Numbered from the stretch's first letter, positions 12,658 through 25,217 are shown. The stretch: DNA of 64,000 bases from Rubrivivax sp. (GCA_046087245.1 JBJTZN010000091.1:2842-66841), one strand, 5' to 3'. Notes: a model not told the origin generated them from the letters alone. Numbers and translations: made by a program.

Positions 12658-13416
12658 ATGCTCGAACCCGCCGATCTGTTGCAGATTCACGACCTGCGCT
12701 ACGCGTGGCCAGGCACGTCTGCCGATGTGCTGAACCTGCAAGCCTTGCACCTGCGCGCCGGGCGCAGCTATTTCCTGCACGGCCCCAGTGGCTGCGGCAA
12801 GAGCACCCTGCTGGGCCTGATGGCGGGCGTGCTGCTGCCCCGGCAGGGGCATGTCGCCCTGCTCGGCCGGGACTGGGCCGCCCTGCCGCCCGGGCGCCGG
12901 GACCGGTTCAGGGCGCAGCACGTCGGCGTCATCTTCCAGCAGTTCAATCTGCTGTCGTACCTGTCATGCCTGGACAACGTGCTGCTGCCTTGTTGGCTGT
13001 CGCCCGTGCGCGCCGAGCGATGCGTCGGCTCGGCGCAGGACGAAGCCCGACGGCTGCTGCAGCGCATGGAGTTGCCGTCAGAACTGTGGCAGCGCAGCGC
13101 CGGCACCCTGTCCATCGGCCAGCAGCAGCGCGTGGCGGCGGCCCGCGCACTGATCGGTCGACCGGCACTGGTGATCGCAGACGAGCCCACGTCCGCCCTG
13201 GATGAGCCGCTGCGGGAGTCCTTCATGGCCCTGTTGATGGGCGAGTGTCGTGAGGGCGGCAGCACCCTGGTGTTCGTCAGCCATGACGAGCGACTCGCGG
13301 CCCACTTCGATGAGCGCCTTTCCCTGCGCGCCTTGCAGGCCCTGCAGCCGGATCGGCCCCTGCAGCCCCTGCAGCCCCTTCGGCCACTCCCGCCCGAGAA
13401 GGTGTCTGTGCCATGA
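12658..13416 (+). CDS. ABC transporter ATP-binding protein (MacB/LolD-like)
   Basis: ORF 12658..13416. It has Walker [10 protein letters not shown], signature LSIGQQQRV and Walker [13 protein letters not shown]. Confidence 0.9.
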
Positions 13417-14687
13417 CCTTTCTCCTGCGGCTGGCCACGCACAGTGCCTGGAACCGGCGTGGCACCCTCGCCCTGGTGCTGGCCTCGATCGCGCTCGCCA
13501 CCGCCCTGCTCTGGGCGCTCGAAGGCTTGCGACGCGACCTGCGCAGCAGTTTTTCGAATGCCGTCAGCGGCACCGATCTGGTCGTGGGCGCCCGCAGCGG
13601 GCCAGTGCAGTTGATGCTGTATGCCGTGTTTCGCGTGGGCGGGGCCACCAACAGCATTTCCATGGACAGCGTGCGCGCGGTGTCCACCCACCGGGCCGTG
13701 GCGTGGACGGTACCGATCGCACTGGGCGACTCGTACCGCGGCTTCCCGGTCATGGGCGCCACCACGGGCTACTTCCAGCACTTCGCCTATGGGGACCGGC
13801 AGCCATTGGCCCTGGAGGCGGGCCGTCCCTTCAGCGGGACCCTGGACGGCCTGTACGAGGCTGTGCTGGGCGCGGAGGTGGCGCAGCGGCTGGGTCACCG
13901 CCTGGGCGACCGCATCACCCTGACCCATGGCATGAGTGCGGCTGCAGGCACCGAGCATGCCGACAAGGCCTTCGTGATCACCGGCATCCTGCAGCGCACC
14001 GGCACGCCGGTGGACCGCACCGTGCATGTGAGCCTGCAGGCCCTGGAGGCGCTGCACCTGGACTGGGTGGGCGGCGCCCCGATGCCGGGGTTGCGCATCT
14101 CCGCCGAGGATGCGCGCAAGTTCGACCTGGAACCCAAGCAGGTGACGGCCGCCTTGGTGGGGCTGAAGAGCCGGGCGGCGGTGTTCAACGTGCAGCGCTT
14201 CGTGGCCGAGTACCCAGGAGAGCCGCTGCTGGGCGTGCTGCCGGGCGTGGCCCTCGACGAACTGTGGGACGCCGTTGGCCTGGGCGAGCGGGCCCTGCAG
14301 CTGGTGTCCGCGCTGGTGGCGGTGGTCAGCCTGGCGGGGCTGGTGGCCACGGTCCTGGCGGGCCTGAACGAGCGCCGAAGGGAGTTGGCGGTGCTGCGCG
14401 CCGTGGGTGCGGGTCCGCGCGACGTGCTGTGGTTGCTGGTGCTGGAGGGCGCGGTGGTCACTGCGGCTGGCGCCTTGCTGGGCGTGCTCACGGCCCTGGC
14501 CGCCCAGGCCCTGGCCGCGCCACTGCTGCAGCGGCGGCTGGGCATCACCTTGCAGATGGGCGCGCCCGAGGTCACGCAGTGGGCGGTGCTGGCTGCCGTG
14601 CTGATCGCGGGTATGCTGGCCAGCCTGCTGCCGGCTTGGCGCGCCTACAGCCTGTCCCTGGCCGATGGCCTCTCGCCACGGCTATGA
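13413..14687 (+). CDS. ABC transporter permease, FtsX/MacB-like
   Basis: ORF 13413..14687 (424 aa). It has an N-terminal TM, a large periplasmic region and a C-terminal FtsX-type TM bundle (NERRRELAVLRAVGAGPRDVLWLLVLEG). Its ATG overlaps the ATPase stop. Confidence 0.85.
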   Translation: MTFLLRLATHSAWNRRGTLALVLASIALATALLWALEGLRRDLRSSFSNAVSGTDLVVGARSGPVQLMLYAVFRVGGATNSISMDSVRAVSTHRAVAWTVPIALGDSYRGFPVMGATTGYFQHFAYGDRQPLALEAGRPFSGTLDGLYEAVLGAEVAQRLGHRLGDRITLTHGMSAAAGTEHADKAFVITGILQRTGTPVDRTVHVSLQALEALHLDWVGGAPMPGLRISAEDARKFDLEPKQVTAALVGLKSRAAVFNVQRFVAEYPGEPLLGVLPGVALDELWDAVGLGERALQLVSALVAVVSLAGLVATVLAGLNERRRELAVLRAVGAGPRDVLWLLVLEGAVVTAAGALLGVLTALAAQALAAPLLQRRLGITLQMGAPEVTQWAVLAAVLIAGMLASLLPAWRAYSLSLADGLSPRL

Positions 14688-15367
14688 ACCGCTTCGCGAC
14701 CCCTTCTGTGCGACCCGCCATGCCCAGTTTCCCCGTTCAGCGGCCCGGGCTCTGCGCCCTGGCCATCGTTTTCGCGGTGGCCGCACTGGTGCCCCTGGGG
14801 CGGGTGCTGGCCCAGCCGGTTCCCGGCGTGCCCACCATGGCCCCGCCCATCGCGCCGACGCCCCCGGGTGGCGGCAGAACGGCCCCGGCCGCTCCCGCCG
14901 GGGCCCCGCGCACCATCGGCTGGGAGGCACTGGTGCCTGCGGACTGGGATCCGATGAAGGACCTCAAGGGTCTGAACCTGTCCATCCTCAGCGACGCCGA
15001 CCCGCGGGCCATCACGGCCCTGTCCAAGCTGCGCGAGGCCTGGGACAACGCGCCCATCAATCCGGCCATGGTGGGCCAACTGGTGCGCCTGCCGGGCTAC
15101 CTGGTACCGCTGGAGGAGACCAAGGACGGGCTGAAGGAGTTCCTGCTCGTACCCTACTTCGGCGCCTGCATCCACAGCCCGCCGCCGCCGGCCAACCAGA
15201 TCGTCCACGTGCTGCCCAAGGCTGCGGCCAAGGGCTTCCGCTCGATGGATACCGTCTGGGTCACCGGCGTGCTCACGGGCGCCCGCACCGACTCGTACAT
15301 GGGAATGTCGGGCTACCGCATCGAGGCCACCCAGGTCACTCCCTACGCCGAGCGTGCCCCGCGTTGA
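14684..15367 (+). CDS. periplasmic DUF3299-like protein
   Basis: In-frame ATG 14684 of ORF 13250..15367 overlaps the permease TGA (ATGA). It has a signal peptide (LCALAIVFAVAALVPLGRVLA) and the motif LVPYFGACIHSPPPPANQIVHV, which I recall as characteristic of DUF3299. Confidence 0.7.
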   Translation: MNRFATPSVRPAMPSFPVQRPGLCALAIVFAVAALVPLGRVLAQPVPGVPTMAPPIAPTPPGGGRTAPAAPAGAPRTIGWEALVPADWDPMKDLKGLNLSILSDADPRAITALSKLREAWDNAPINPAMVGQLVRLPGYLVPLEETKDGLKEFLLVPYFGACIHSPPPPANQIVHVLPKAAAKGFRSMDTVWVTGVLTGARTDSYMGMSGYRIEATQVTPYAERAPR

Positions 15368-15382
15368 GGGCGCCGGGGGCGG

Positions 15383-17245
15383 TCAGAACGAGATCCCGAC
15401 GCTGAAGTGCAGCCGGGTCTTGCGCACGGCCTCGCCGTAGGCCAGATCCAGACGCAGCGGACCGACGGGACTGCGCCAGCGCAAGCCGACGCCAGCGCCC
15501 ACCACGGGACGCAGGTCCGAGAAGCGATCGGCGGCCTGTCCCGCGTCAACGAACACGGCGCCCCAGAACTGCGGCAGGCTGTCGCTCAGGGGACGGGCGA
15601 GCTCCATGCTGGTGGTCAGGACGGCCTTGCCGCTGTCCACCGTGCCGTTGCGGGTCGGACCCAGCGAGCGGTAGGCGTAGCCGCGTACCGAGTCGTCGCC
15701 CCCGGCCCGAAAGCGCAGTGTGTCCGGCACGTCCAGCCCGGCAGGGGAGACCACCTGGCCGGCCTCCACCCGAGCCTGGGCGTACCACTGCGCCCCCAGC
15801 GGCAGGTAGCCGGTGACGCGGCCCCACACCCGCCCGAAGGCGCCGTCTATCCCGGAACTGTCACGCGCCTGGCCCAGGCCCGTCTGCAGGCTGGCCGTCA
15901 GCCCCCGGGTCGGCAGCACCGGGTTGTCCACGTCGCGCCACGACCAGTGGTGATTGGCCGACAGGGCGACAGAGACGCTCTTGTCGATGGCCGTGCGTCG
16001 GGCTGACCGGTCCACCTCGACGAACTGGAAGCGCTCGATCCTGGGCGAGTCCTGGATGCGGCCGGCGCGCAGGCGCTGGGCCAGTACCACGTCGGTGTCG
16101 GACTTCAGTCGCTCGACAGTGCCGCCAGCCAGCCAGCGGTACAACTGCGGCCCGGGGTGGGTGCTGATCTCGCCATCCCAGGCCTGCCGCGCGAGGCCCC
16201 ACTCGGCCTTGTTGCGAGAGGTGGCCGCCTGGCCGAACAGCCGCCGGTCGATGTGCTCCACCGTGGCCCGCGGCCCCGTGTTGGCGCTCACGCCCACGCC
16301 CAGCACGAGCTGCTGCCGAGGGGATTCCTCGACCTGCACCGCCACTGGCGCGGCTGCGGCCTGATCGGGCGCAGGCTCCACCGCCACCGTGGCCCGCTGG
16401 AACAGGCCGGACTTCTGCAGGCGGTCCTGAAAGTCCAGCACCAGGGTCTCGGTCAAGGGCGTGCCGGGCCCGAAGTTGGCCAGGTGGCTCACGGTCTGAA
16501 GGTCGTGCAGCCGCAGACCTTCCACCCGCAACTCACCGCTGAGGAACAGCGGCCCGGGGTCGGCGGACAGCCGCAGCCAGGCCTGGTGCTCAGCAGGATC
16601 GATGTCGGCCTCGGTTCGGCCCCAGGCGGCCGCCAGGTGTCCCGCCGCCCGCAGCCGCGCCAGGCTGGCGGTCTTGGCATCGGCCCAGGTCTGGTTGCGA
16701 AACGGCGCGCCGGTCTTCAGCGTCCAGTGGTCCCGCAGGCCCTGCAGGGTCTGCACGGCATCCGGGCGGCCGGCCTTCACCGCCTCGGCCCAGCTGCCTT
16801 CGAACTCCAGATCCACCCGGGCGACCAGTGTGCGGGGGCCGGGCTTCAACTGCAGCACCACGAGGGGCGGTCCGTCAGGGCTTGCGGCGGGACGCCGCCG
16901 GATCTGGACCACGGGCTCGAAGTAGCCTTCGGTCTGCAGCAACTCTCGCGTCTGTGCCGGTGCGGCGTCGATCAGGCGCGAGAGTTCGCCTTCGGTCAGC
17001 CGCTCACCGCGTGCCACCGTGGCCAGGCGCGCCAGGTCCAGGTGACGCCCCAGCAAGAGACGCAGATCCGGCGGCGCGTCGATCTCGAGGTCCAGGGCGG
17101 CGGGCCCTGGCGCGGGGGCGGACTCTGGTGCGGACGCGCTCACCGATGCACCGGGTCTTGCCCCCAGCAAAGCGCAACCACTGCCCGCCAGGGCCGCGAC
17201 GGCCAGCAGCACGCGGCCCAGCCAGCGCCGGGCACACGGGCTCAT
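15383..17245 (-). CDS. Omp85-family outer-membrane protein, TamA-like (620 aa)
   Basis: In-frame ATG 17245 of the 1092-aa ORF 15383..18661 overlaps the upstream gene's TGA (ATGA). The N-terminus is MSPCARRWLGRVLLAVAALAGSGC. The N-half is POTRA-like, and a beta-barrel C-half ends ...RLHFSVGISF (terminal Phe). Confidence 0.8.
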   Translation of the reverse strand: MSPCARRWLGRVLLAVAALAGSGCALLGARPGASVSASAPESAPAPGPAALDLEIDAPPDLRLLLGRHLDLARLATVARGERLTEGELSRLIDAAPAQTRELLQTEGYFEPVVQIRRRPAASPDGPPLVVLQLKPGPRTLVARVDLEFEGSWAEAVKAGRPDAVQTLQGLRDHWTLKTGAPFRNQTWADAKTASLARLRAAGHLAAAWGRTEADIDPAEHQAWLRLSADPGPLFLSGELRVEGLRLHDLQTVSHLANFGPGTPLTETLVLDFQDRLQKSGLFQRATVAVEPAPDQAAAAPVAVQVEESPRQQLVLGVGVSANTGPRATVEHIDRRLFGQAATSRNKAEWGLARQAWDGEISTHPGPQLYRWLAGGTVERLKSDTDVVLAQRLRAGRIQDSPRIERFQFVEVDRSARRTAIDKSVSVALSANHHWSWRDVDNPVLPTRGLTASLQTGLGQARDSSGIDGAFGRVWGRVTGYLPLGAQWYAQARVEAGQVVSPAGLDVPDTLRFRAGGDDSVRGYAYRSLGPTRNGTVDSGKAVLTTSMELARPLSDSLPQFWGAVFVDAGQAADRFSDLRPVVGAGVGLRWRSPVGPLRLDLAYGEAVRKTRLHFSVGISF

Positions 17246-18426
17246 TTGGTCAGCAACCGCATCGCCGCCTCCAGCCCGGCCAGCGTGAGCGGGAACATGC
17301 GCTGGCTCATGAGTTGCTGCATGACGGCGATGCTCTGGCGGTATTGCCACACGCCCTGGGGCTCCGGGTTGATCCAGGCGAACTTCGGGAAGGCGTGGGT
17401 CAGGCGCTGCAGCCATTCGGCCCCGGGCTCCTCGTTGTTGTACTCCACGCTGCCACCGGGCTGCAGGATCTCGTAGGGGCTCATGGTGGCGTCGCCCACG
17501 AAGATCAGCTTGTAGTCCCGGTTGTACTTGCGGATCACGTCCCAGGTCGGGAACTTCTCGCTGAAGCGGCGGCGGTTGTTCTTCCACATGAAGTCGTAGA
17601 CGCAGTTGTGGAAGTAATAGAACTCCAGGTGCTTGAATTCGGTCTTGGCGGCGCTGAACAACTCTTCCACGCGGTGGATATGCTCGTCCATGGTGCCGCC
17701 CACATCCATGAGCAAGAGCACTTTGACGCGGTTGTGGCGTTCGGGCACGAGCTTGATGTCCAGCATGCCGGCATTGGCCGCCGTGCTGTGGATGGTGTCG
17801 TCGAGATCGAGTTCCTCGGCGGCGCCTTCGCGCGCGAAGCGCCGCAGCCGGCGCAGCGCCACCTTGATGTTGCGCGTGCCCAGCTCCTTGGTGTCGTCGT
17901 AGTCCTTGTAGGCGCGCTGGTCCCACACCTTCACCGCACTGCGGTTGCGGCCCTTGTCCTGGCCGATGCGTATGCCCTGCGGGTTGTAGCCGTAGGCGCC
18001 AAAGGGGCTGGTGCCGCCCGTGCCGATCATGCGGTTGCCGCCCTCGTGGCGCTCCTTCTGCTCCTCGAAGCGCTTCTTCAGGGTCTCCATCAGCTCGTCC
18101 CAGCCCATCTTCTCGATGGCCGCCTTCTCCTCGGGCGACAGCTCCAGTTCCAGCGCCTTGCGCAGCCACTCCAGCGGCACGTCCTGCGTGTAGTCCGTCA
18201 GCAGTTCCACCCCCTTGAAGTAGGCGGAAAAGGCCCGGTCGAACTTGTCGAAGTTCACCTCGTCCTTGACCAGGGTGGTGCGTGACAGGAAGTAGAACTT
18301 GTCCACGCTCGGACCGCCTTCGTCGTCGATCACCCCGGCCTTGAGCGCTTCCAGCAAGGTCAGGTACTCCTTCACCGACACCGGCAGCCTGGCCGCGCGC
18401 AGCGTGTAGAAGAAGTTGATCAGCAT
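17242..18426 (-). CDS. VWA-domain protein of the type paired with MoxR ATPases (CoxE/COG3825-like)
   Basis: ATG 18426 in ORF 17242..18873 gives MLINFFYTLRAARLPVSVKEYLTLLEAL... The C-terminal VWA-like segment is VKVLLLMDVGGTMDEH. The start is 2 nt after the peptidase stop. Confidence 0.8.
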   Translation of the reverse strand: MLINFFYTLRAARLPVSVKEYLTLLEALKAGVIDDEGGPSVDKFYFLSRTTLVKDEVNFDKFDRAFSAYFKGVELLTDYTQDVPLEWLRKALELELSPEEKAAIEKMGWDELMETLKKRFEEQKERHEGGNRMIGTGGTSPFGAYGYNPQGIRIGQDKGRNRSAVKVWDQRAYKDYDDTKELGTRNIKVALRRLRRFAREGAAEELDLDDTIHSTAANAGMLDIKLVPERHNRVKVLLLMDVGGTMDEHIHRVEELFSAAKTEFKHLEFYYFHNCVYDFMWKNNRRRFSEKFPTWDVIRKYNRDYKLIFVGDATMSPYEILQPGGSVEYNNEEPGAEWLQRLTHAFPKFAWINPEPQGVWQYRQSIAVMQQLMSQRMFPLTLAGLEAAMRLLTK

Positions 18427-18428
18427 GC

Positions 18429-20528
18429 TCAGCCCCGCTTCCTGCCGGCCCGGCCGGGCACCTTGCGCCCCGCCGCATGGGCCGGATCGTGGGCCCGCAG
18501 CCAGTCGAAGAACTCGCCATACCACTGGCGGCTGTTGCGGGGCTTGAGGATCCAGTGGTTCTCGTCGGGGAACCACAGAAGTCGTGCGTCCACGCCACGG
18601 GCCTTGAGCGTGTTGTAGTACGCCAGGCCCTGCGCGTCGGGCACCCGGTAGTCCAGGGCACCGTGGATCACCAGCGTGGGCGTTCGCATGCCCGCGGCAT
18701 GGGCATGGGGGCTCTGGCGATGGACCTGGGCCATGTCGTCCCAGTACCAGGCGCCCAGCTCCTTGGCATGCCAGTGGTAGGCATCGTCGGCAAACATGCC
18801 CGCCCAGTCGAAGCAGCCGGCGTGACAGATGTAGGCCCGGTATCGGCCGGGCTTCACATGCGCGTTCATCCACGCCACCATGTAGCCGCCGTAGCTGCCG
18901 CCAGCGGCGAAGACGCGCTGGCGGTCGACCCAGGGCTTCTTCAGCAGCGCGTCAGTGGCTGCCTCGATATCCAGCAGCTCCAGTTCGCCCCGGCGGTGGG
19001 TGATGCTGTCCAGGAAGGCGTGACCGAAGCTCGACGAGCCGTGGTAGTTCACGCTGGCCACCACGTAGCCCTGGGCCGCAAACAGGTGGGTGTTCCAACG
19101 GTAGTGCCAGGTGTCGCCCGCCGCAGTGTGCGGCCCGCCATGGATGTTGTGCATCAGCGGGTGCTTGCGCTGCCGGTCAAAGTCGGGCGGGAAGGTCAGC
19201 CAGACCTGCACCCGTTCGCCCAGCGCACCGGTGATCCAGGTTTCCTCGGTGCGGCCGAAGTCCAGGGTGGACAGCAGCTTGTCGTTGAATTGTTCAAGGC
19301 GTCGGGCCGGCACGGGCGGGCCGGTTTGCAGGCTGTGCGCGTGTACACGCCCCGGGTGCTGGGCGCAGTCCGCCAGCGTGACGAGCCGGCCGGCAGCCAG
19401 GTCGAAGGCGTGAACGCAGCCGCCCGCAACCACCACCTCGGCCTGCCGGGCTTCAAGGTCGAAGCGCCAGAGGTGGCGCCGGCCCTCGTGCTCGGCGCAC
19501 AGCAGAACCGCATCGGCCGCAGCGACCGCATCGTCCCAACGCAGCGGCGCATGCACCTCATGGTCCCAGTCGGCGCTGATGACGTCCCAGCGGCCCCCCT
19601 GGCGCTTCCATACGGCCAACTGACCTGGCATCGTGTGTTTCAGGCCCTGGTGGCTGGCGACGAAGGCGATGCGTTGACCGTCCGGGCTGTAGCTGGGCGC
19701 GCTGAAATCCCAGGCCGCATTCTGGGCAATGACCTGGATGCGTCCGGTCTTCAGATCGATCTCGGCCAGCGCGAATCGGCCATCGCCCCGCTTTTGCGGC
19801 GCGGGGTCGAAGGCGAAGACCAGACGCCGCCCATCGGGCGAGACATCGAAGCACTGGCCATCGGGCTCGGCGCGTTCGAGCTCGTAAGCCGTACCTTCGA
19901 AGAGGTCGCGCGCGCGGCCCGTGGCCAGGTCCATCAGGTGCAGGCGGGCCACCCGGCCCATGGGCATGTGGTGGTCCCAGTGGCGGTTCTGTGCCTGGCT
20001 GGTGGCGTAGCCGCTTTCCTTGCGCTTGCCGAACTCGGCATGGCGTCTGGCCTGTGCCGCCGAGCCCTTGAGCTCGGGCCAGACCCAGGACACGAAGACC
20101 ACCTGACGCCCGTTCGGGCACCAGCGGAAGGCCTCCACGCCCGTGGCCACATCGCCCGCACGCTGCGCCTCGCCGCCGTCCACCGGGATCAGGTACAGCT
20201 GCGGCGTCTCGTCCTTGTGGCCCTCCTGCTCGCGCTTGGCGATGAAGCCGATGCGGTCCCCGGCCGGGCTGAAGCGCGGCTGCCCGTCCTTCTCGCCGCA
20301 GGAGGTCAGGCGGCGAGGCTGGCCGCCCAGGGTGGACAGCAGCCACAAGCTGCTGGAGGCTTTGTTGTCCTCCATGGCGTATGAGGTCACCGCCACCGCG
20401 GCCTGCGCCCCGTCCGGCGACAGGCTGGGGGCGCCCAGACGGTCGAGCTGCCACAGGTGCTCGATGGCGAAAGGTGTCTTCTTTCGGGCGCGGGCCTTGC
20501 CCCTGGATCGGGCGTCTTGGGCGTTCAT
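18429..20528 (-). CDS. S9 family serine peptidase (prolyl oligopeptidase / acylaminoacyl-peptidase type), no signal peptide
   Basis: ORF 18429..20528. It has a beta-propeller-like N-half and a C-terminal alpha/beta hydrolase domain with the GGSYGGYM nucleophile elbow. The N-terminus MNAQDARSRGKARARKK is not signal-like. Confidence 0.88.
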   Translation of the reverse strand: MNAQDARSRGKARARKKTPFAIEHLWQLDRLGAPSLSPDGAQAAVAVTSYAMEDNKASSSLWLLSTLGGQPRRLTSCGEKDGQPRFSPAGDRIGFIAKREQEGHKDETPQLYLIPVDGGEAQRAGDVATGVEAFRWCPNGRQVVFVSWVWPELKGSAAQARRHAEFGKRKESGYATSQAQNRHWDHHMPMGRVARLHLMDLATGRARDLFEGTAYELERAEPDGQCFDVSPDGRRLVFAFDPAPQKRGDGRFALAEIDLKTGRIQVIAQNAAWDFSAPSYSPDGQRIAFVASHQGLKHTMPGQLAVWKRQGGRWDVISADWDHEVHAPLRWDDAVAAADAVLLCAEHEGRRHLWRFDLEARQAEVVVAGGCVHAFDLAAGRLVTLADCAQHPGRVHAHSLQTGPPVPARRLEQFNDKLLSTLDFGRTEETWITGALGERVQVWLTFPPDFDRQRKHPLMHNIHGGPHTAAGDTWHYRWNTHLFAAQGYVVASVNYHGSSSFGHAFLDSITHRRGELELLDIEAATDALLKKPWVDRQRVFAAGGSYGGYMVAWMNAHVKPGRYRAYICHAGCFDWAGMFADDAYHWHAKELGAWYWDDMAQVHRQSPHAHAAGMRTPTLVIHGALDYRVPDAQGLAYYNTLKARGVDARLLWFPDENHWILKPRNSRQWYGEFFDWLRAHDPAHAAGRKVPGRAGRKRG

Positions 20529-20531
20529 GTG

Positions 20532-21140
20532 TCAGCGGCTGCGGGCAAGCTGGAAGTCGAGGTGCGTCTTGACCACCGGCCACTCCGCCGCGGTGATGCT
20601 GTAGACCGCGGTGTCGCGCAAGGTGCCGCCGTGTCCGATCTGGTGCGCGCGCAGGATGCCGTCCAGTTGCGCGCCCAGGCGCTCGATGGCGCGGCGGCTC
20701 TGGGTGTTCAGGCGGTGCGTGCGGAACTCCACGGCGATGCACTGCAGGCTCTCGAAGGCGTGGCCCAGCAGCATGCGCTTGCATTCGGTGTTCAGCGCCG
20801 AGCGCTGCGTGCTCTGCGCATACCAGGTGCTGCCGATCTCCACGCGCCGGTTGGCGGCATCGACGTTCATGTAGGTCGTCATGCCCACGATGCGGCCGGC
20901 GGCATCGACGACGGTGAAGGGCAGCATCAGGCCTTGGGCCTGCAGCTTCAGGCGCCGCTCGATCTCGGCCTTCATGCCTTCAGGTGTCGGCACGGCGGTG
21001 TACCAGAGCTTCCAGAGCTCGCCGTCCCTGACGGCATCGCACAAGGCCGCTTCGTGCTCCCACGCCAAGGGCAGCAACTGCGCATGCCCGCCGGCCATCA
21101 CCAGGGGTTCGATCCAGGGGCTGCTCATCTCAGCGCTCAT
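20532..21140 (-). CDS. GNAT family N-acetyltransferase (RimJ/RimL-like)
   Basis: These are the last 202 codons of ORF 20532..21812. ATG 21140 overlaps the MoxR stop (ATGA). The region VEIGSTWYAQSTQRSALNTECKRMLLGHAFE...AIERLGAQLDGILR is typical of Acetyltransf_3-type GNATs. An alternative ATG lies at 21128. Confidence 0.8.
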   Translation of the reverse strand: MSAEMSSPWIEPLVMAGGHAQLLPLAWEHEAALCDAVRDGELWKLWYTAVPTPEGMKAEIERRLKLQAQGLMLPFTVVDAAGRIVGMTTYMNVDAANRRVEIGSTWYAQSTQRSALNTECKRMLLGHAFESLQCIAVEFRTHRLNTQSRRAIERLGAQLDGILRAHQIGHGGTLRDTAVYSITAAEWPVVKTHLDFQLARSR

Positions 21141-21979
21141 CGGTGGTTGCGCTGCATGAAGACCAACTTCTCGAACAGCGTGACGTCCTGCTCGTTCTTC
21201 AGCAAGGCGCCCACCAGGGGGGGTACCGCCACCTTGTCGTCCTTGCTCTGCAGCACCTCCAGCGGGATGTCCTCGGCCACCAGCAGCTTCAGCCAGTCCA
21301 GCAGCTCGGAAGTGCTGGGCTTCTTCTTCAGGCCGGGCAGGTTGCGCACCTCGTAGAAGGTCTTCAGGGCCGCGCCCAGCAACTCTTTCTTGAGCCCGGG
21401 GAAATGCACGTCCACGATAGCCTGCATGGTGGGCGCGTCGGGGAACTTGATGTAGTGGAAGAAGCAGCGGCGCAGGAAGGCGTCGGGCAACTCCTTCTCG
21501 TTGTTGGAGGTGATGAACACCAGCGGCCGGTGCCGCGCCTTGATGAGCTCGCGCGTCTCGTAGACGTAGAACTCCATGCGGTCGATCTCGCGCAGCAGAT
21601 CGTTCGGGAACTCGATGTCGGCCTTGTCGATCTCGTCGATCAGCAGGGCCACCGGTTGCTCGGCAGTGAAGGCCTGCCACAGCACGCCGCGCACGATGTA
21701 GTTCTGGATGTCCTTGACCTTCTCGTCGCCGAGCTGGCTGTCGCGCAGGCGGCTGACGGCGTCGTACTCGTACAGGCCCTGCTGGGCCTTGGTGGTGCTT
21801 TTCACATGCCATTGCAGCAAGGGCATGTTCAGCGCCTGCGCCACCTCCTCGGCCAGCATGGTCTTGCCGGTGCCCGGCTCGCCCTTGACCAGCAGCGGGC
21901 GCTTGAGCGTGAGGGCCGCGTTGACGGCCAGCATCAGGTCGTCAGTGGCAACGTAGTGGTCGGAACCCTTGAACTTCAT
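21137..21979 (-). CDS. MoxR-family AAA+ ATPase
   Basis: ATG 21979 in ORF 21137..22135 gives MKFKGSDHYVATDD... It has Walker A GEPGTGKT and Walker B LLIDEIDKA. Confidence 0.88.
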   Translation of the reverse strand: MKFKGSDHYVATDDLMLAVNAALTLKRPLLVKGEPGTGKTMLAEEVAQALNMPLLQWHVKSTTKAQQGLYEYDAVSRLRDSQLGDEKVKDIQNYIVRGVLWQAFTAEQPVALLIDEIDKADIEFPNDLLREIDRMEFYVYETRELIKARHRPLVFITSNNEKELPDAFLRRCFFHYIKFPDAPTMQAIVDVHFPGLKKELLGAALKTFYEVRNLPGLKKKPSTSELLDWLKLLVAEDIPLEVLQSKDDKVAVPPLVGALLKNEQDVTLFEKLVFMQRNHR

Positions 21980-22267
21980 GTTGGCGCGAGCCCTGGGAAG
22001 GGTGGTGGCAAGGTGGGTGGATGCAGCAGCCCCTGCCTCGGCGAGCTGGGCGCCAGGCCTGCGTACCGCAGACGCTTGCGCCGCAGCCGCCGCATGGGGA
22101 CAAGAGCGTGCAGCAGGGCCTTGTCCACGAGGCAAACCAGTATAAAGGCCGCCCTATAATTCAGGGTGGAGCAAGCTTGCGGGTGCAGCGCCGTGGCGTC
22201 CGCTGACAGAGTGCACATCCGCCGCAGGGCTGCGGTGAGCAGGCCAAGAGATTCCGAGGGAAGTTCG

Positions 22268-22912
22268 ATGATCAGAGCGTTGACTGTGTTGCTGGCGCTG
22301 GCCGGCGTGTCCCTGACCGCAGCGGCTCAGGATGCCAAGGCCGGCGAGAAGCTGGCGGCCATGTGCATAGGCTGCCACGGCATCCCCGGCTACCAGGCCA
22401 GCTTTCCCGAGGTGCACCGGGTCCCGATGATTTCCGGCCAGAACGCGAGTTACATCGTCGCCTCTCTGCTGGCCTACCAGAAGGGCGAGCGCAAGCATCC
22501 CACGATGAAGGGCATTGCCTGGTCCCTGACCGAGCAGCAGATGGCTGACCTGGGCGCCTTCTACGAGCAGCACGGCAGAAGCAGCGTCGTCAGCGTCGCG
22601 CAAACTGTCCGGGCGCCCTCTGAACAGGTCAAGGCTTTGCTGGACAAGGGGGCCTGCGCCTCCTGCCACGGCGTGGACTACAACAAGCCTATCAATCCCG
22701 CCTACCCGAAGCTGGCCGGCCAGCACGCGGACTACCTCTACGTGGCGCTGAAGTCCTACAAGACCGAAGGGCTGGCCACGCTGGGTCGCGGCAACGCCAT
22801 CATGGCCGCGCAGGTCAAGGCCTTCAAGCCCAGCGAACTCAAGGCCATGGCCGACTACATCGGCTCGCTGCCGGGCGATCTCAAGACCGTGGCGCAGCCC
22901 AGGTTCCGCTGA
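22268..22912 (+). CDS. dihaem cytochrome c4
   Basis: ATG 22268 in ORF 22166..22912. It has a signal peptide [21 protein letters not shown] and two haem motifs, CIGCH and CASCH. Confidence 0.88.
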
Positions 22913-25217
22913 CCGGCAGCGCCTTGGGTCGCCAGCGCCGCAGGGTCAGGGCGTTGGTGATCACGCTGACGCTGGACAGCGCCATGGCTGCACCCGCCAG
23001 CACCGGGCTGAGCAGCCCCAGGGCAGCCAACGGCAGGCCCACCACGTTGTAGGCAAAGGCCCAGGAGAGGTTCTGGCGCAGCTTGCGCCGGATGGCCCAG
23101 GACAGCTCCCATGCCTCCACCACCGCGTTCGGGTCGCCCCGCAGCAGGGTCAGACCGGCGGTCTGCATGGCCACATCGGTTCCCGCACCCTGCGCGGCCA
23201 TGGCCAGGCCCACGTCAGCGGCGGCCAGCGCAGGGGCGTCGTTGACCCCGTCGCCCACCATTGCCACGCCTTCTCCCGCCGTCAGTTCGGCCTTCAACTC
23301 GCCCACGACCCGCGCCTTGTCGCCTGGCAGCACCTCGGCGCGCACTTCATCAATGCCCAGCGTGCGTGCCATGGACTGCGCGGCGCCCTGGTTGTCGCCG
23401 CTGAGCATCACCACCCGCAGCCCCTGCGCCCGCAGCCGGGCGATGGCCTGCGCCGCGCCGTCCTTGGCCTGGTCGCCGAAGGTCAGCAGCCCCAGCACCC
23501 GGGCGTGGCCCGCATCTGAAGCCGCCGGCTCGAACAGCCAGGACACCGTCTGGCCCGCTGACGCGGCCTGCGATGCCAGGACCTGCTGCGGTCCGGGGTC
23601 CAGGCCGCATTCCTGCAGCCAGCGCGTGCTGCCCAGGCGCAGTTCGCGGCCGTCCACCTGGGCTTGCACGCCCCGGCCCGCCACGAGCTGCACGGCGCGC
23701 ACCCGGGCGCCTGCGCCAGCACCTGTGCCGGCACTGTCTCCGGCGCTTGCCTCAGCGCTGGATCCGGTGGCCGGCGCCGCCATGGCGGCGGGCGCCTGCG
23801 CGCTGGCGGCGGCCTGCAGCACCGCGCGTGCCAACGGGTGGTCGTTGCCGGCCTGCAAGGCGGCGGCCAGGCGAAGCACTTCGGCGTCGTCCTCCGCCGT
23901 GCCCGCCATCGAGGTACAGGCGATCAGGCGTGGCTGGCCCTGGGTGAGCGTGCCGGTCTTGTCGAAGGCGACGATCCGCACCGTGCGCAGCGTCTCCAGT
24001 GCCTGAGCGTCGCGCACCAGGATGCCATGGCGCGCGGCCAGGCCGGTGCCCACCATCAGCGTGGCCGGCGTGGCCAGGCCCAGGGCGCAGGGGCAGGCGA
24101 TGACCAGCACCGAAACGGCGTTCAGGATGGCGGCCACGGCGTCGCCCTTCAGCATCCACCACGCCAGGCCCGTGACCAGCGCGATGACGATGACTGTGGG
24201 CACGAACACCGCACTGACCTTGTCCACCAGTTGCTGGATGGGCGCCTTGCGGGCCTGGGCCGACTCCACCAGCCGCACGATGCGGGCCAGTTGCGTCTCG
24301 GCCCCGATGGCGGTGGTGCGCACCACGATCAGGCCCTCGAGGTTGAGGGCGCCGCCGGTGACCGGTTGTCCGACCTCCCGTGCCACGGGCAGGCTTTCGC
24401 CCGTGAGCAGCGACTCGTCCAGGTGACTTCGGCCCTCGATGATCAAGCCATCCGTGGGCAGGCGCTCGCCCGGGTGCACCACCACCTCGGAGCCCACGCG
24501 CAGCGCCGACAGCGGCACTTCGGTCTGCACCCCCTGCCGGCGGATGCGGGCGGTCTCGGGGCGCAGCCCGCGCAGCGACTGCAGCGTAGCCAGCGTCTGG
24601 TGCTTGGCGCGGGACTCCATCCACTTGCCGAGCATGACCAGGGTGATGACCACGGCGGCGCTCTCGAAGTACAGGTGCGGCGCATGCCCGGCAGGCGCCT
24701 GCCACCACAGCGCGAGACTCAGGCCGAAGGCCGCGGTGGTGCCGATGGCCACCAGCAGATCCATGTTGCCGGCCCGGGCCTTCACGGCGGCCCAGCCCGC
24801 GCGGTAGAAGCGCGCGCCCAGCCAGAACTGCACGGGTGCGGCCAGCAGGGCCTGCACGCCGGCCGGCCACATCCAATCCCGACCCAGCAGGTCACCCACC
24901 ATGGGCAGCATCAGCGGCAGCGACAGGCCCGCGGCCACGACCACCTTCCAGCCCTCGTCATGGCGGCGGTGCGCCGGCTCGGCCAGCCCATCGGCATCGG
25001 CTTGCACCAGGCTGGCTTCGTAGCCGGCGCGCTGGATGGCCGCCAGCAGCAGCAGGGGATCGGTCTCCCCCTGGGCGCTGACCTGCGCCTGTTCCGTGGC
25101 CAGGTTGACGCTGGCGGACTGCACGCCCGGCACCCGGGCCAGGGCCTTCTCCACCCGCGACACGCAACTGGCGCAGGTCATGCCGTCGATGTTCAGAGTG
25201 TGCTCGGCCATGCGCAT
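22881..25217 (-). CDS. copA: copper-translocating P1B-type ATPase
   Basis: ORF 22881..25217. It has an N-terminal HMA motif GMTCASC, plus CPC (IACPCALG), DKTGTLT and GDGVNDAP. Confidence 0.92.

Follow-up and report, generated by a model that had tools for sequence, protein, structure and literature searches.

The five minus-strand genes at positions 15,383 to 21,979 of a 64,000-nucleotide (nt) stretch of DNA from Rubrivivax sp. (GCA_046087245.1 JBJTZN010000091.1:2842-66841; the whole stretch is called the window here, and positions are counted from its first letter) are probably the 5' part of an operon typical of their lineage, consisting of a common MoxR/VWA chaperone pair, two add-on genes and an ordinary TamA whose tamB has been relocated. 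An earlier interpretation made from the DNA alone, the sequence-only reading, had instead suggested that they may be a dedicated module without TamB, in which MoxR/VWA remodelling, N-acetylation and proteolysis of some client are linked to an Omp85 protein. The five genes are as follows.

21137..21979, minus strand: MoxR-type AAA+ ATPase, 280 amino acids (aa), from Pfam AAA_5/AAA and the open reading frame list
20532..21140, minus strand: GNAT acetyltransferase, 202 aa, Pfam Acetyltransf_3
18429..20528, minus strand: S9 serine peptidase, 699 aa, Pfam Peptidase_S9 and PD40
17242..18426, minus strand: CoxE-type VWA protein, partner of MoxR, 394 aa, Pfam VWA_CoxE
15383..17245, minus strand: TamA ortholog (Omp85), 620 aa, Pfam Omp85, best NCBIfam model TamA

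The description on which the sequence-only reading was built is sound. The coordinates confirm junctions of -4, +3, +2 and -4 nt, that is, a 4-nt overlap of MoxR and GNAT (21137-21140), a 3-nt gap between GNAT and S9, a 2-nt gap between S9 and VWA, and a second 4-nt overlap, ATGA in the window, of VWA and TamA (17242-17245). All starts in the cluster are the first possible in-frame ones, and since the relatives of GNAT and S9 align from residue 1 in the closest genomes only, the positions of the two gaps are known with a little less confidence than those of the overlaps. Pfam and NCBIfam agree with its assignment of the genes to MoxR, GNAT, S9, VWA and TamA-like Omp85; GNAT and S9 do split the MoxR/VWA pair, and the S9 protein has no visible hydrophobic signal at its N-terminus. 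Its remark that no function had been described for the combination also stands as far as the listed portions of the bacterial literature reach, in which no paper on MoxR together with TamA or TamB was found.

A canonical TamA at the end of the cluster

By sequence and by its conserved position before tamB, the barrel is identified as an ortholog of canonical TamA, and it does not represent a new class of Omp85. Residues 396-620 match Pfam Omp85 (PF01103) with 117.1 bits (cut-off 24; E 1.5e-33), while among the NCBIfam models TamA scores 188.7 bits, BamA 98.6 and TamL 21.8, and the ShlB/TpsB families of Pfam yield no match at E<=0.01. The solved TamA chain 8us1_A aligns to residues 80-617 with E 7e-35, compared with E 3e-8 at best for BamA chains, and the alignment spans chain residues 31-556 of 559. 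TamA is characterized by three POTRA domains; in the protein of the window, POTRA_TamA_1 (E 0.002) and POTRA (E 0.003) both score under their Pfam cut-offs. From its N-terminus, the protein has a signal peptide, an Ala/Pro-rich linker, a putative POTRA region and the Omp85 barrel. The suggestion of a non-canonical Omp85 is thus not upheld, as classification by hidden Markov models favours TamA over BamA, TamL and TpsB.

The genome context agrees with this assignment. In the source genome, a draft of 196 contigs that is 98.4% complete with an estimated contamination of 3.33%, there are exactly two Omp85 matches, a BamA-type frame of 788 aa on contig C29 and the barrel of the window, which is the only non-BamA Omp85; a second tamA is not present. 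As in the TamA-TamB system (TAM) of Escherichia coli and other Proteobacteria (8us1, 4c00), we find an Omp85 barrel whose N-terminal region is of the TamA type and which aligns to a solved TamA chain over nearly all of its length, this barrel being the sole second Omp85 beside BamA, a single TamB with a C-terminal TamB/DUF490 domain in the genome, and orthologs that lie directly upstream of tamB. Unlike in the usual system, the tamB of the window's clade is unlinked and sits behind ureD, tamA stands last, behind MoxR-GNAT-S9-VWA, and its start overlaps the stop of the VWA gene, and TamA carries a lipoprotein-type signal peptide and scores below the NCBIfam equivalog cut-off.

Relocation of tamB

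What has become of tamB? In the window it does not follow tamA. As the sequence-only reading had observed and Pfam matches of the flanks confirm, the next gene is a convergent DUF3299 gene, the last of a trio (12658-15367) that occupies the slot held by tamB in relatives.

12658-13416, plus strand: ABC ATPase (Pfam), convergent with TamA
13413-14687, plus strand: FtsX/MacB-type permease (Pfam), convergent with TamA
stop at 15367, plus strand: DUF3299 protein (Pfam), convergent with TamA

The genome contains one match to the TamB domain (PF04357, 182.6 bits), in a frame of 1441 aa at C71:21941-26266, with ureD and an ABC transporter before it and a LigB-family gene after it. What is found is thus a canonical TamA with a tamB elsewhere in the same genome, a combination which the sequence-only reading itself had named as speaking against a dedicated module, its additional clause on co-regulation of the two left aside.

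In the closest genomes, G018 and G009, whose TamA is 79% identical, both sides of the relocation are seen again: tamA adjoins the convergent DUF3299 gene as in the window, and ureD is followed by tamB. Among the loci compared, the junction of TamA with the convergent DUF3299-FtsX-ABC genes is confined to seven, two of which (L005 and L138) are the same G018 contig. The state without tamB in the window is a rearrangement common to its nearest relatives only. A missing tamB could also be produced by a chimeric contig in a draft metagenome-assembled genome, and a draft in 196 contigs with some estimated contamination gives reason to consider this. However, the TamA/DUF3299 junction recurs in the independent assemblies behind these loci and the ureD-tamB junction is repeated in G009 and G018; because of this recurrence, the junctions are not assembly artefacts, and we attach practically no probability to this explanation.

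As to the new location, tamB comes directly after ureD, an accessory gene of urease, and genes for an NMT1-type binding protein and an ABC transporter lie upstream of it (C71:21000-26300, corresponding to L004 7185-13267; in G009, locus L134). The order M20 peptidase-NMT1-ABC-permease-ureD is kept in G012 and G013, whose tamB is elsewhere. A single inversion with breakpoints at tamA/tamB and at ureD/ABC-FtsX-DUF3299 was considered and rejected, as in G012 and G013, where tamA and tamB are still joined, ureD and the trio lie on separate contigs, with other neighbours.

Two further cases are found outside the window's clade. In L037, from a genome of another genus (G054), tamA has no tamB downstream, and L139 and L163, from a second Rubrivivax-like group, have the order MoxR-VWA-TamA with neither GNAT nor S9 and no tamB in 8 kb. 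As these loci are also without tamB, the separation of tamA and tamB probably occurred in more than one event. Since the two genes are separable by rearrangement within one genus, a missing adjacent tamB is not evidence for a different system. A TamB-independent Omp85 system would have been new, but the barrel in the window is an ordinary TamA and its tamB has merely moved.

Gene order in the genus and the family

A TamA match was found in 27 of 31 genomes (G000 included), and for 26 relatives up to 9 kb on each side were taken and the window proteins placed by tblastn. Within the genus, 19 loci from 18 genomes were compared. VWA is followed by TamA in 18 of them, the exception being a second TamA copy in G015, and TamA directly by TamB in 17. 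The usual order in the genus is cyt c4<>MoxR-GNAT-S9-VWA-TamA-TamB, where <> marks divergence from a cytochrome c4-type gene, or, with the optional genes in brackets, cyt c4<>MoxR-(GNAT)-(S9)-VWA-TamA-TamB. The closest loci among the named genome contigs belong to Rubrivivax sp. and related metagenome-assembled genomes; in the 31 named loci TamB comes after TamA in 23 and is missing from seven in which 3.5 kb or more of sequence follows, while one locus is too short to tell.

The arrangement extends through the family. With one genome per genus, the VWA protein is found in 139 of 151 family genomes (a tally that includes one unpublished genome, G174), most full-length matches being 65-92% identical. 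Sixty loci centred on VWA were picked from the 138 genera with a match such that contigs were long and the identity range was covered. TamA follows VWA in 47 of these genera, in 44 of them within 700 nt; in 12, TamA is absent from a downstream stretch of 2.5 kb or longer, and one locus is too short. Where TamA is present, TamB comes next in 46 of 47 loci. MoxR is found in 58 loci, a divergent cytochrome c4-type gene in 51, GNAT in 49 and S9 in 21; MoxR directly adjoins VWA in four, and S9 occurs without GNAT in L039, L043, L048 and L054.

Where neighbouring cluster genes lie more than 650 nt apart, the space between them carries further genes, which we read from Pfam-confirmed open reading frames. 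The commonest is a GGDEF gene on the opposite strand (12 loci), followed by an opposite-strand EAL gene (six loci) and PIN or PIN/MazE toxin-antitoxin genes (four loci); an S41 peptidase, a thioesterase, an EamA transporter, an NlpC/P60 protein and a hemerythrin are also found. The space between S9, GNAT or MoxR on one side and VWA on the other appears as an insertion hotspot in the relatives, its usual filler being a diguanylate cyclase (GGDEF) or EAL phosphodiesterase gene. As such opposite-strand genes lie inside the cluster, MoxR-GNAT-S9 and VWA-TamA-TamB do not form one transcript in many relatives. GNAT and S9 are optional and behave like other insertions at a permissive site.

This comparison bears on the proposed module. 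The genes are co-directional, tight and syntenic in relatives, as expected by the sequence-only reading, but they are not an obligate single unit, given the optional GNAT and S9 genes and the interruptions from the opposite strand. A TamB-independent machine in which the client of MoxR/VWA is acetylated, cleaved by S9 and fed to an Omp85 insertase would account for the tight junctions of the five genes, and the resemblance of GNAT to protein N-terminal acetyltransferases and of S9 to acyl-peptide hydrolases would make a plausible enzymatic pairing. However, the barrel is a TamA ortholog with a tamB in the genome, tamB comes directly after its orthologs in 17 of 19 genus and 46 of 47 family loci, S9 is missing from 39 and GNAT from 11 of the 60 genera, S9 occurs without GNAT, and the five-gene form without tamB is confined to the window's clade. 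We therefore consider such a machine very improbable, and would not interpret the cluster as one driven by MoxR/VWA.

A different possibility is raised by the conserved linkage itself. MoxR/VWA could be functionally tied to TAM in this family, for example by controlling the production or maturation of TamA and TamB or by serving an envelope client shared with them, with GNAT and S9 as accessory modifiers. Selection on this tie would then maintain the gene order and the overlap of VWA and tamA. The succession of VWA, TamA and TamB in most genera speaks for such a tie, which we nevertheless hold to be unlikely.

The VWA-tamA overlap and the TamA signal peptide

In 74 of 91 adjacent pairs, the VWA stop and the first possible start of TamA share 4 nt (ATGA or GTGA); with a single locus per genus, the count is 29 of 48. 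These counts use the earliest in-frame start candidates and relatives that are not independent. Conservation of the overlap in so many genera would fit a functional tie of the pair to TAM, although an overlap, once it has arisen, is maintained because each of the two genes is under selection, whether or not their functions are connected.

The second feature of these proteins is a predicted lipid anchor. TamA of the window starts with a lipoprotein-type signal peptide, MSPCARRWLGRVLLAVAALAGSG, followed by C, the candidate lipid-bearing Cys24 at ~17174-17176, so that this N-terminal region (17174-17245) ends in AVAALAGSG-C24. A lipobox pattern is found in the TamA N-termini of 74 of 94 family loci and, at genus level, 34 of 48; the pattern is PROSITE-like and was run over the whole in-frame upstream stretch, such that a few matches may be spurious. 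Typical ends in the family are LLAGC, LLSGC and LLGGC, compared with ALAGSGC in the window. A minority of the family has ordinary TamA ends of the signal-peptidase-I type, as do six loci from other families (L024-L028 and L030, with L027 unclear).

Lipidation is the feature that defines TamL in Bacteroidota, a lipid-anchored TamA-like protein which, in the portion of the source covered here, is described for Bacteroidetes and Chlorobi only (Heinz et al., 2015; PMC4494059). The protein of the window resembles TamL, as far as the covered parts of PMC4494059 and PMC12045153 describe it, in that a lipid anchor is predicted at the N-terminus of a TamA-like barrel, and in being the sole TamA-type protein of its genome. 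It differs in that its barrel is TamA by sequence, with 21.8 bits against the cut-off of 400 for the NCBIfam TamL model NF052279, and in coming from a betaproteobacterial family. Given the ordinary signal peptides in a minority of the family and in other families of the order, the lipid anchor looks like an acquisition separate from that of TamL. The portions of the TamL literature covered, including PMC4494059 and PMC12045153, contain no description of a lipidated TamA in Proteobacteria. For the question of a functional tie, the lipobox gained by most family TamA proteins makes their TAM unusual in a second respect, and counts in its favour.

Independent distribution of the MoxR/VWA pair and TAM

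MoxR AAA+ ATPases and VWA proteins form chaperone pairs in several systems, among them CoxD-CoxE of CO dehydrogenase, NorQ-NorD, RavA-ViaA and CbbQ-CbbO. The pair of the window is like these in combining an AAA_5-type ATPase of about 280 aa with a partner whose VWA domain is of the Pfam VWA_CoxE type. It is unlike them in being split by two genes, with VWA downstream of these, and in having no client enzyme encoded nearby, variable neighbours and no close solved relative. No CO dehydrogenase genes, which would accompany CoxD/CoxE, were found by Pfam in the window flanks or around 30 related pairs, the whole genome not having been searched for cox.

How closely does the pair follow TAM beyond the family? 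In the order, 68 of 151 genomes have a VWA ortholog, and in the class 32 of 201 do. Neither TamA nor TamB lies downstream of VWA in any of 38 loci from about 20 other families of the order, 34 of which offer at least 2.5 kb of room; GNAT lies between MoxR and VWA in 10 of the 38, and MoxR directly adjoins VWA in 20. Conversely, the TamA loci of other families have TamB in eight of eight cases, and none has MoxR or VWA. Outside the order, MoxR directly adjoins VWA in 19 of 20 loci, and GNAT, S9, TamA and TamB are found in none of the 20. This free-standing adjacency outside the family indicates that the ancestral unit is a self-contained MoxR/VWA pair. Its genomic context gives no lead to a function, as 30 pairs outside the family each have a different gene nearest to them on the same strand (BenE, NUDIX, PGK, LysR, SOD and others).

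TAM, in turn, is found without the pair. Five near-complete family genomes have no VWA match; four of the five have a full-length TamA-like gene, and the MoxR ortholog is missing from four of the five. As TamA is kept in four of five genomes that lack the pair, TAM does not need it. The pair and TAM are thus independent in their distribution.

These observations weigh heavily on the proposed tie between MoxR/VWA and TAM. The linkage has a single origin in one family, with no instance in the 38 loci of the order or the 20 of the class, 12 of 60 genera have VWA without TamA downstream, TamA persists in genomes without the pair, and tamB left the cluster in the window's clade without visible consequence. 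Moreover, MoxR and VWA are both without a signal peptide visible in their translations and TamA is an outer-membrane protein, so that no direct contact between them is expected.

A more far-reaching version of the tie would be that TAM has become a dependent part of the MoxR/VWA operon in the family that contains Rubrivivax: TamA would be coupled to VWA and would have gained a TamL-like anchor independently, while the pair, with optional GNAT and S9, would control the supply or maturation of TAM or a shared client, such that TamB could be uncoupled from the operon but TamA could not. We rate this scenario as improbable to the same degree.

An evolutionary scenario

Our preferred reading, a lineage-typical operon with an ordinary TamA and a relocated tamB, suggests a stepwise origin. 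The ancestral unit would be a free-standing cytoplasmic chaperone pair of two genes, a MoxR AAA+ ATPase with its VWA adaptor of the CoxE type. Within Burkholderiales, a GNAT gene of the RimJ/RimL type would have been inserted between the two, and within the family an S9 gene resembling acyl-peptide hydrolases would have followed in some genera, and the tamA-tamB pair would have come to sit directly behind the VWA gene. In the window's clade, a later rearrangement moved tamB behind ureD, leaving tamA as the last gene, facing the convergent ABC/FtsX/DUF3299 trio. In the present-day cluster, translation of TamA may be coupled to the VWA stop via the ATGA overlap, and TamA, probably lipid-anchored, would work at the outer membrane as part of an ordinary TAM, together with the unlinked TamB. 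MoxR and VWA would act in the cytoplasm on a client, with GNAT and S9 in accessory roles.

Several points weigh against this reading. The mechanism of the tamB move is not given by a single inversion. The TamA score of the barrel, 188.7 bits, lies well below the NCBIfam equivalog cut-off of 625, although this model is narrow, as only one of 14 in the control genomes reaches the cut-off. Co-transcription of the five genes is no more than probable, as the short contigs from runs labelled as metatranscriptomes cannot prove a transcript. The loci were chosen for long contigs and a spread of identity, and the relatives are not independent of each other. The remaining two points fit a functional tie of MoxR/VWA to TAM: the 4-nt overlap of VWA and tamA is kept over genera in which TamA is only 40-55% identical, and VWA-TamA-TamB stays together where opposite-strand genes part MoxR from VWA.

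Irrespective of this tie, the association of MoxR/VWA with tamAB throughout the family, with its conserved overlap and its lipobox-bearing TamA, is a new arrangement of families that are each already known. One family keeps tamAB joined to a widespread pair of MoxR and CoxE-type VWA by a conserved start/stop overlap, and this provides a testable handle on the chaperone pair. That its TamA proteins mostly carry a lipobox gives them, in addition, the feature by which TamL is defined.

Transcription of the cluster

The five genes are probably transcribed from the spacer in front of MoxR, which separates them from the divergent cytochrome gene.

21980..22165: spacer of 186 nt between the cytochrome c4-type gene and MoxR, likely promoter region of the cluster
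22166-22912, plus strand: cytochrome c4-type gene, di-haem cytochrome c (Pfam), divergent from MoxR

A consensus scan for sigma-70-like promoters returned no site in the cluster and spacer, and five terminator-like sites were found in the cluster, all on the plus strand and none on the minus strand, against a mean of 3.7 in shuffled sequence; at 66-73% G+C, both scans are uninformative. At the distal end, the DUF3299 stop at 15367 lies 15 nt from the TamA stop (15368-15382 between the convergent genes), so any terminators must sit within coding sequence.

In a comparison with sequencing runs, which are represented by Logan contigs, the highest share of sampled words was 0.41, from a run of what is probably DNA, and the share reached one half in none. 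All five genes are covered in part by fragments (150-480 nt) from the runs X1, X3, X5 and X6, for which DNA carry-over is possible. The VWA/TamA junction is crossed by two contigs of one study, X3 at 17112-17299 and X6 at 17150-17331, which as contigs cannot prove a transcript. Within the VWA gene, at window 17508-17602, a contig of the RNA-labelled run X3 lacks 93 nt (31 codons); it may stem from a relative whose gene differs in length without a change of frame.

The MoxR, GNAT, S9 and VWA proteins

MoxR matches Pfam AAA_5 (E 5e-12; 46.4 bits, cut-off 22) and AAA (E 6e-12), and its translation contains a Walker A motif, GEPGTGKT, and a Walker B motif, LLIDEID. Its identity to relatives is 82-93% over 58 of the 60 family loci and 69-76% outside the order. 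Among solved structures it has weak matches to midasin AAA domains only. An assignment to NCBIfam MadB was dropped, together with the MadB/MadC lead, at 106 bits against a cut-off of 475; the literature found under the MadB/MadC names concerned only an unrelated lantibiotic dehydratase.

The GNAT protein matches Pfam Acetyltransf_3 (E 7e-16), and its nearest solved chains are protein N-acetyltransferases of the RimJ/RimL family (8gxk, E 1.6e-26). It is like these enzymes in its best solved relatives, and differs in that its gene is optional here and no NCBIfam match reaches equivalog level. Identity to its counterparts (L032-L091) is bimodal, at either ~62-75% or ~43-51%, and does not track that of the flanking MoxR and VWA (in L034, GNAT is 51% and VWA 90% identical). 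By sequence identity, this suggests two GNAT lineages in one slot.

For S9, Peptidase_S9 (PF00326; E 1e-50, 172.5 bits) and PD40 (53.3 bits) point to a beta-propeller joined to an alpha/beta-hydrolase domain, and the serine motif reads GGSYGG. The best NCBIfam model is Dpp5, at 359.8 bits under a cut-off of 900. Its closest counterparts among solved structures are 8wt1, an S9 family peptidase (E 2e-61), and 5yzm, a putative acyl-peptide hydrolase, and they also include acylamino-acid-releasing enzymes. As with GNAT, the likeness to a known group, here the S9C acyl-peptide hydrolases, lies in the best solved relatives, while the gene is optional in the cluster and there is no NCBIfam match at equivalog level.

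The VWA protein matches Pfam VWA_CoxE at 33.1 bits against a cut-off of 26.4. No relative was found among solved structures, and the Atlas clusters are named only 'VWA domain containing CoxE-like protein'. Residues ~238-245 (~17690-17715) are at what we take to be the usual position of the VWA metal site, with the canonical motif D-x-S-x-S; the protein here reads M-D-V-G-G-T-M-D, corresponding to D-x-G-x-T.

Neighbouring genes

Farther downstream of the convergent trio, the window flank holds a gene for a urease beta subunit (Pfam). On the other side of the cluster, a CopA-type copper ATPase lies beyond the cytochrome c4-type gene (window region 22166-25217), and the two are also adjacent in nine of the related loci (L005, L006, L037, L054, L068, L137, L142, L149 and L162). 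The divergent arrangement of the cytochrome c4-type gene and MoxR recurs in six other families of the order.

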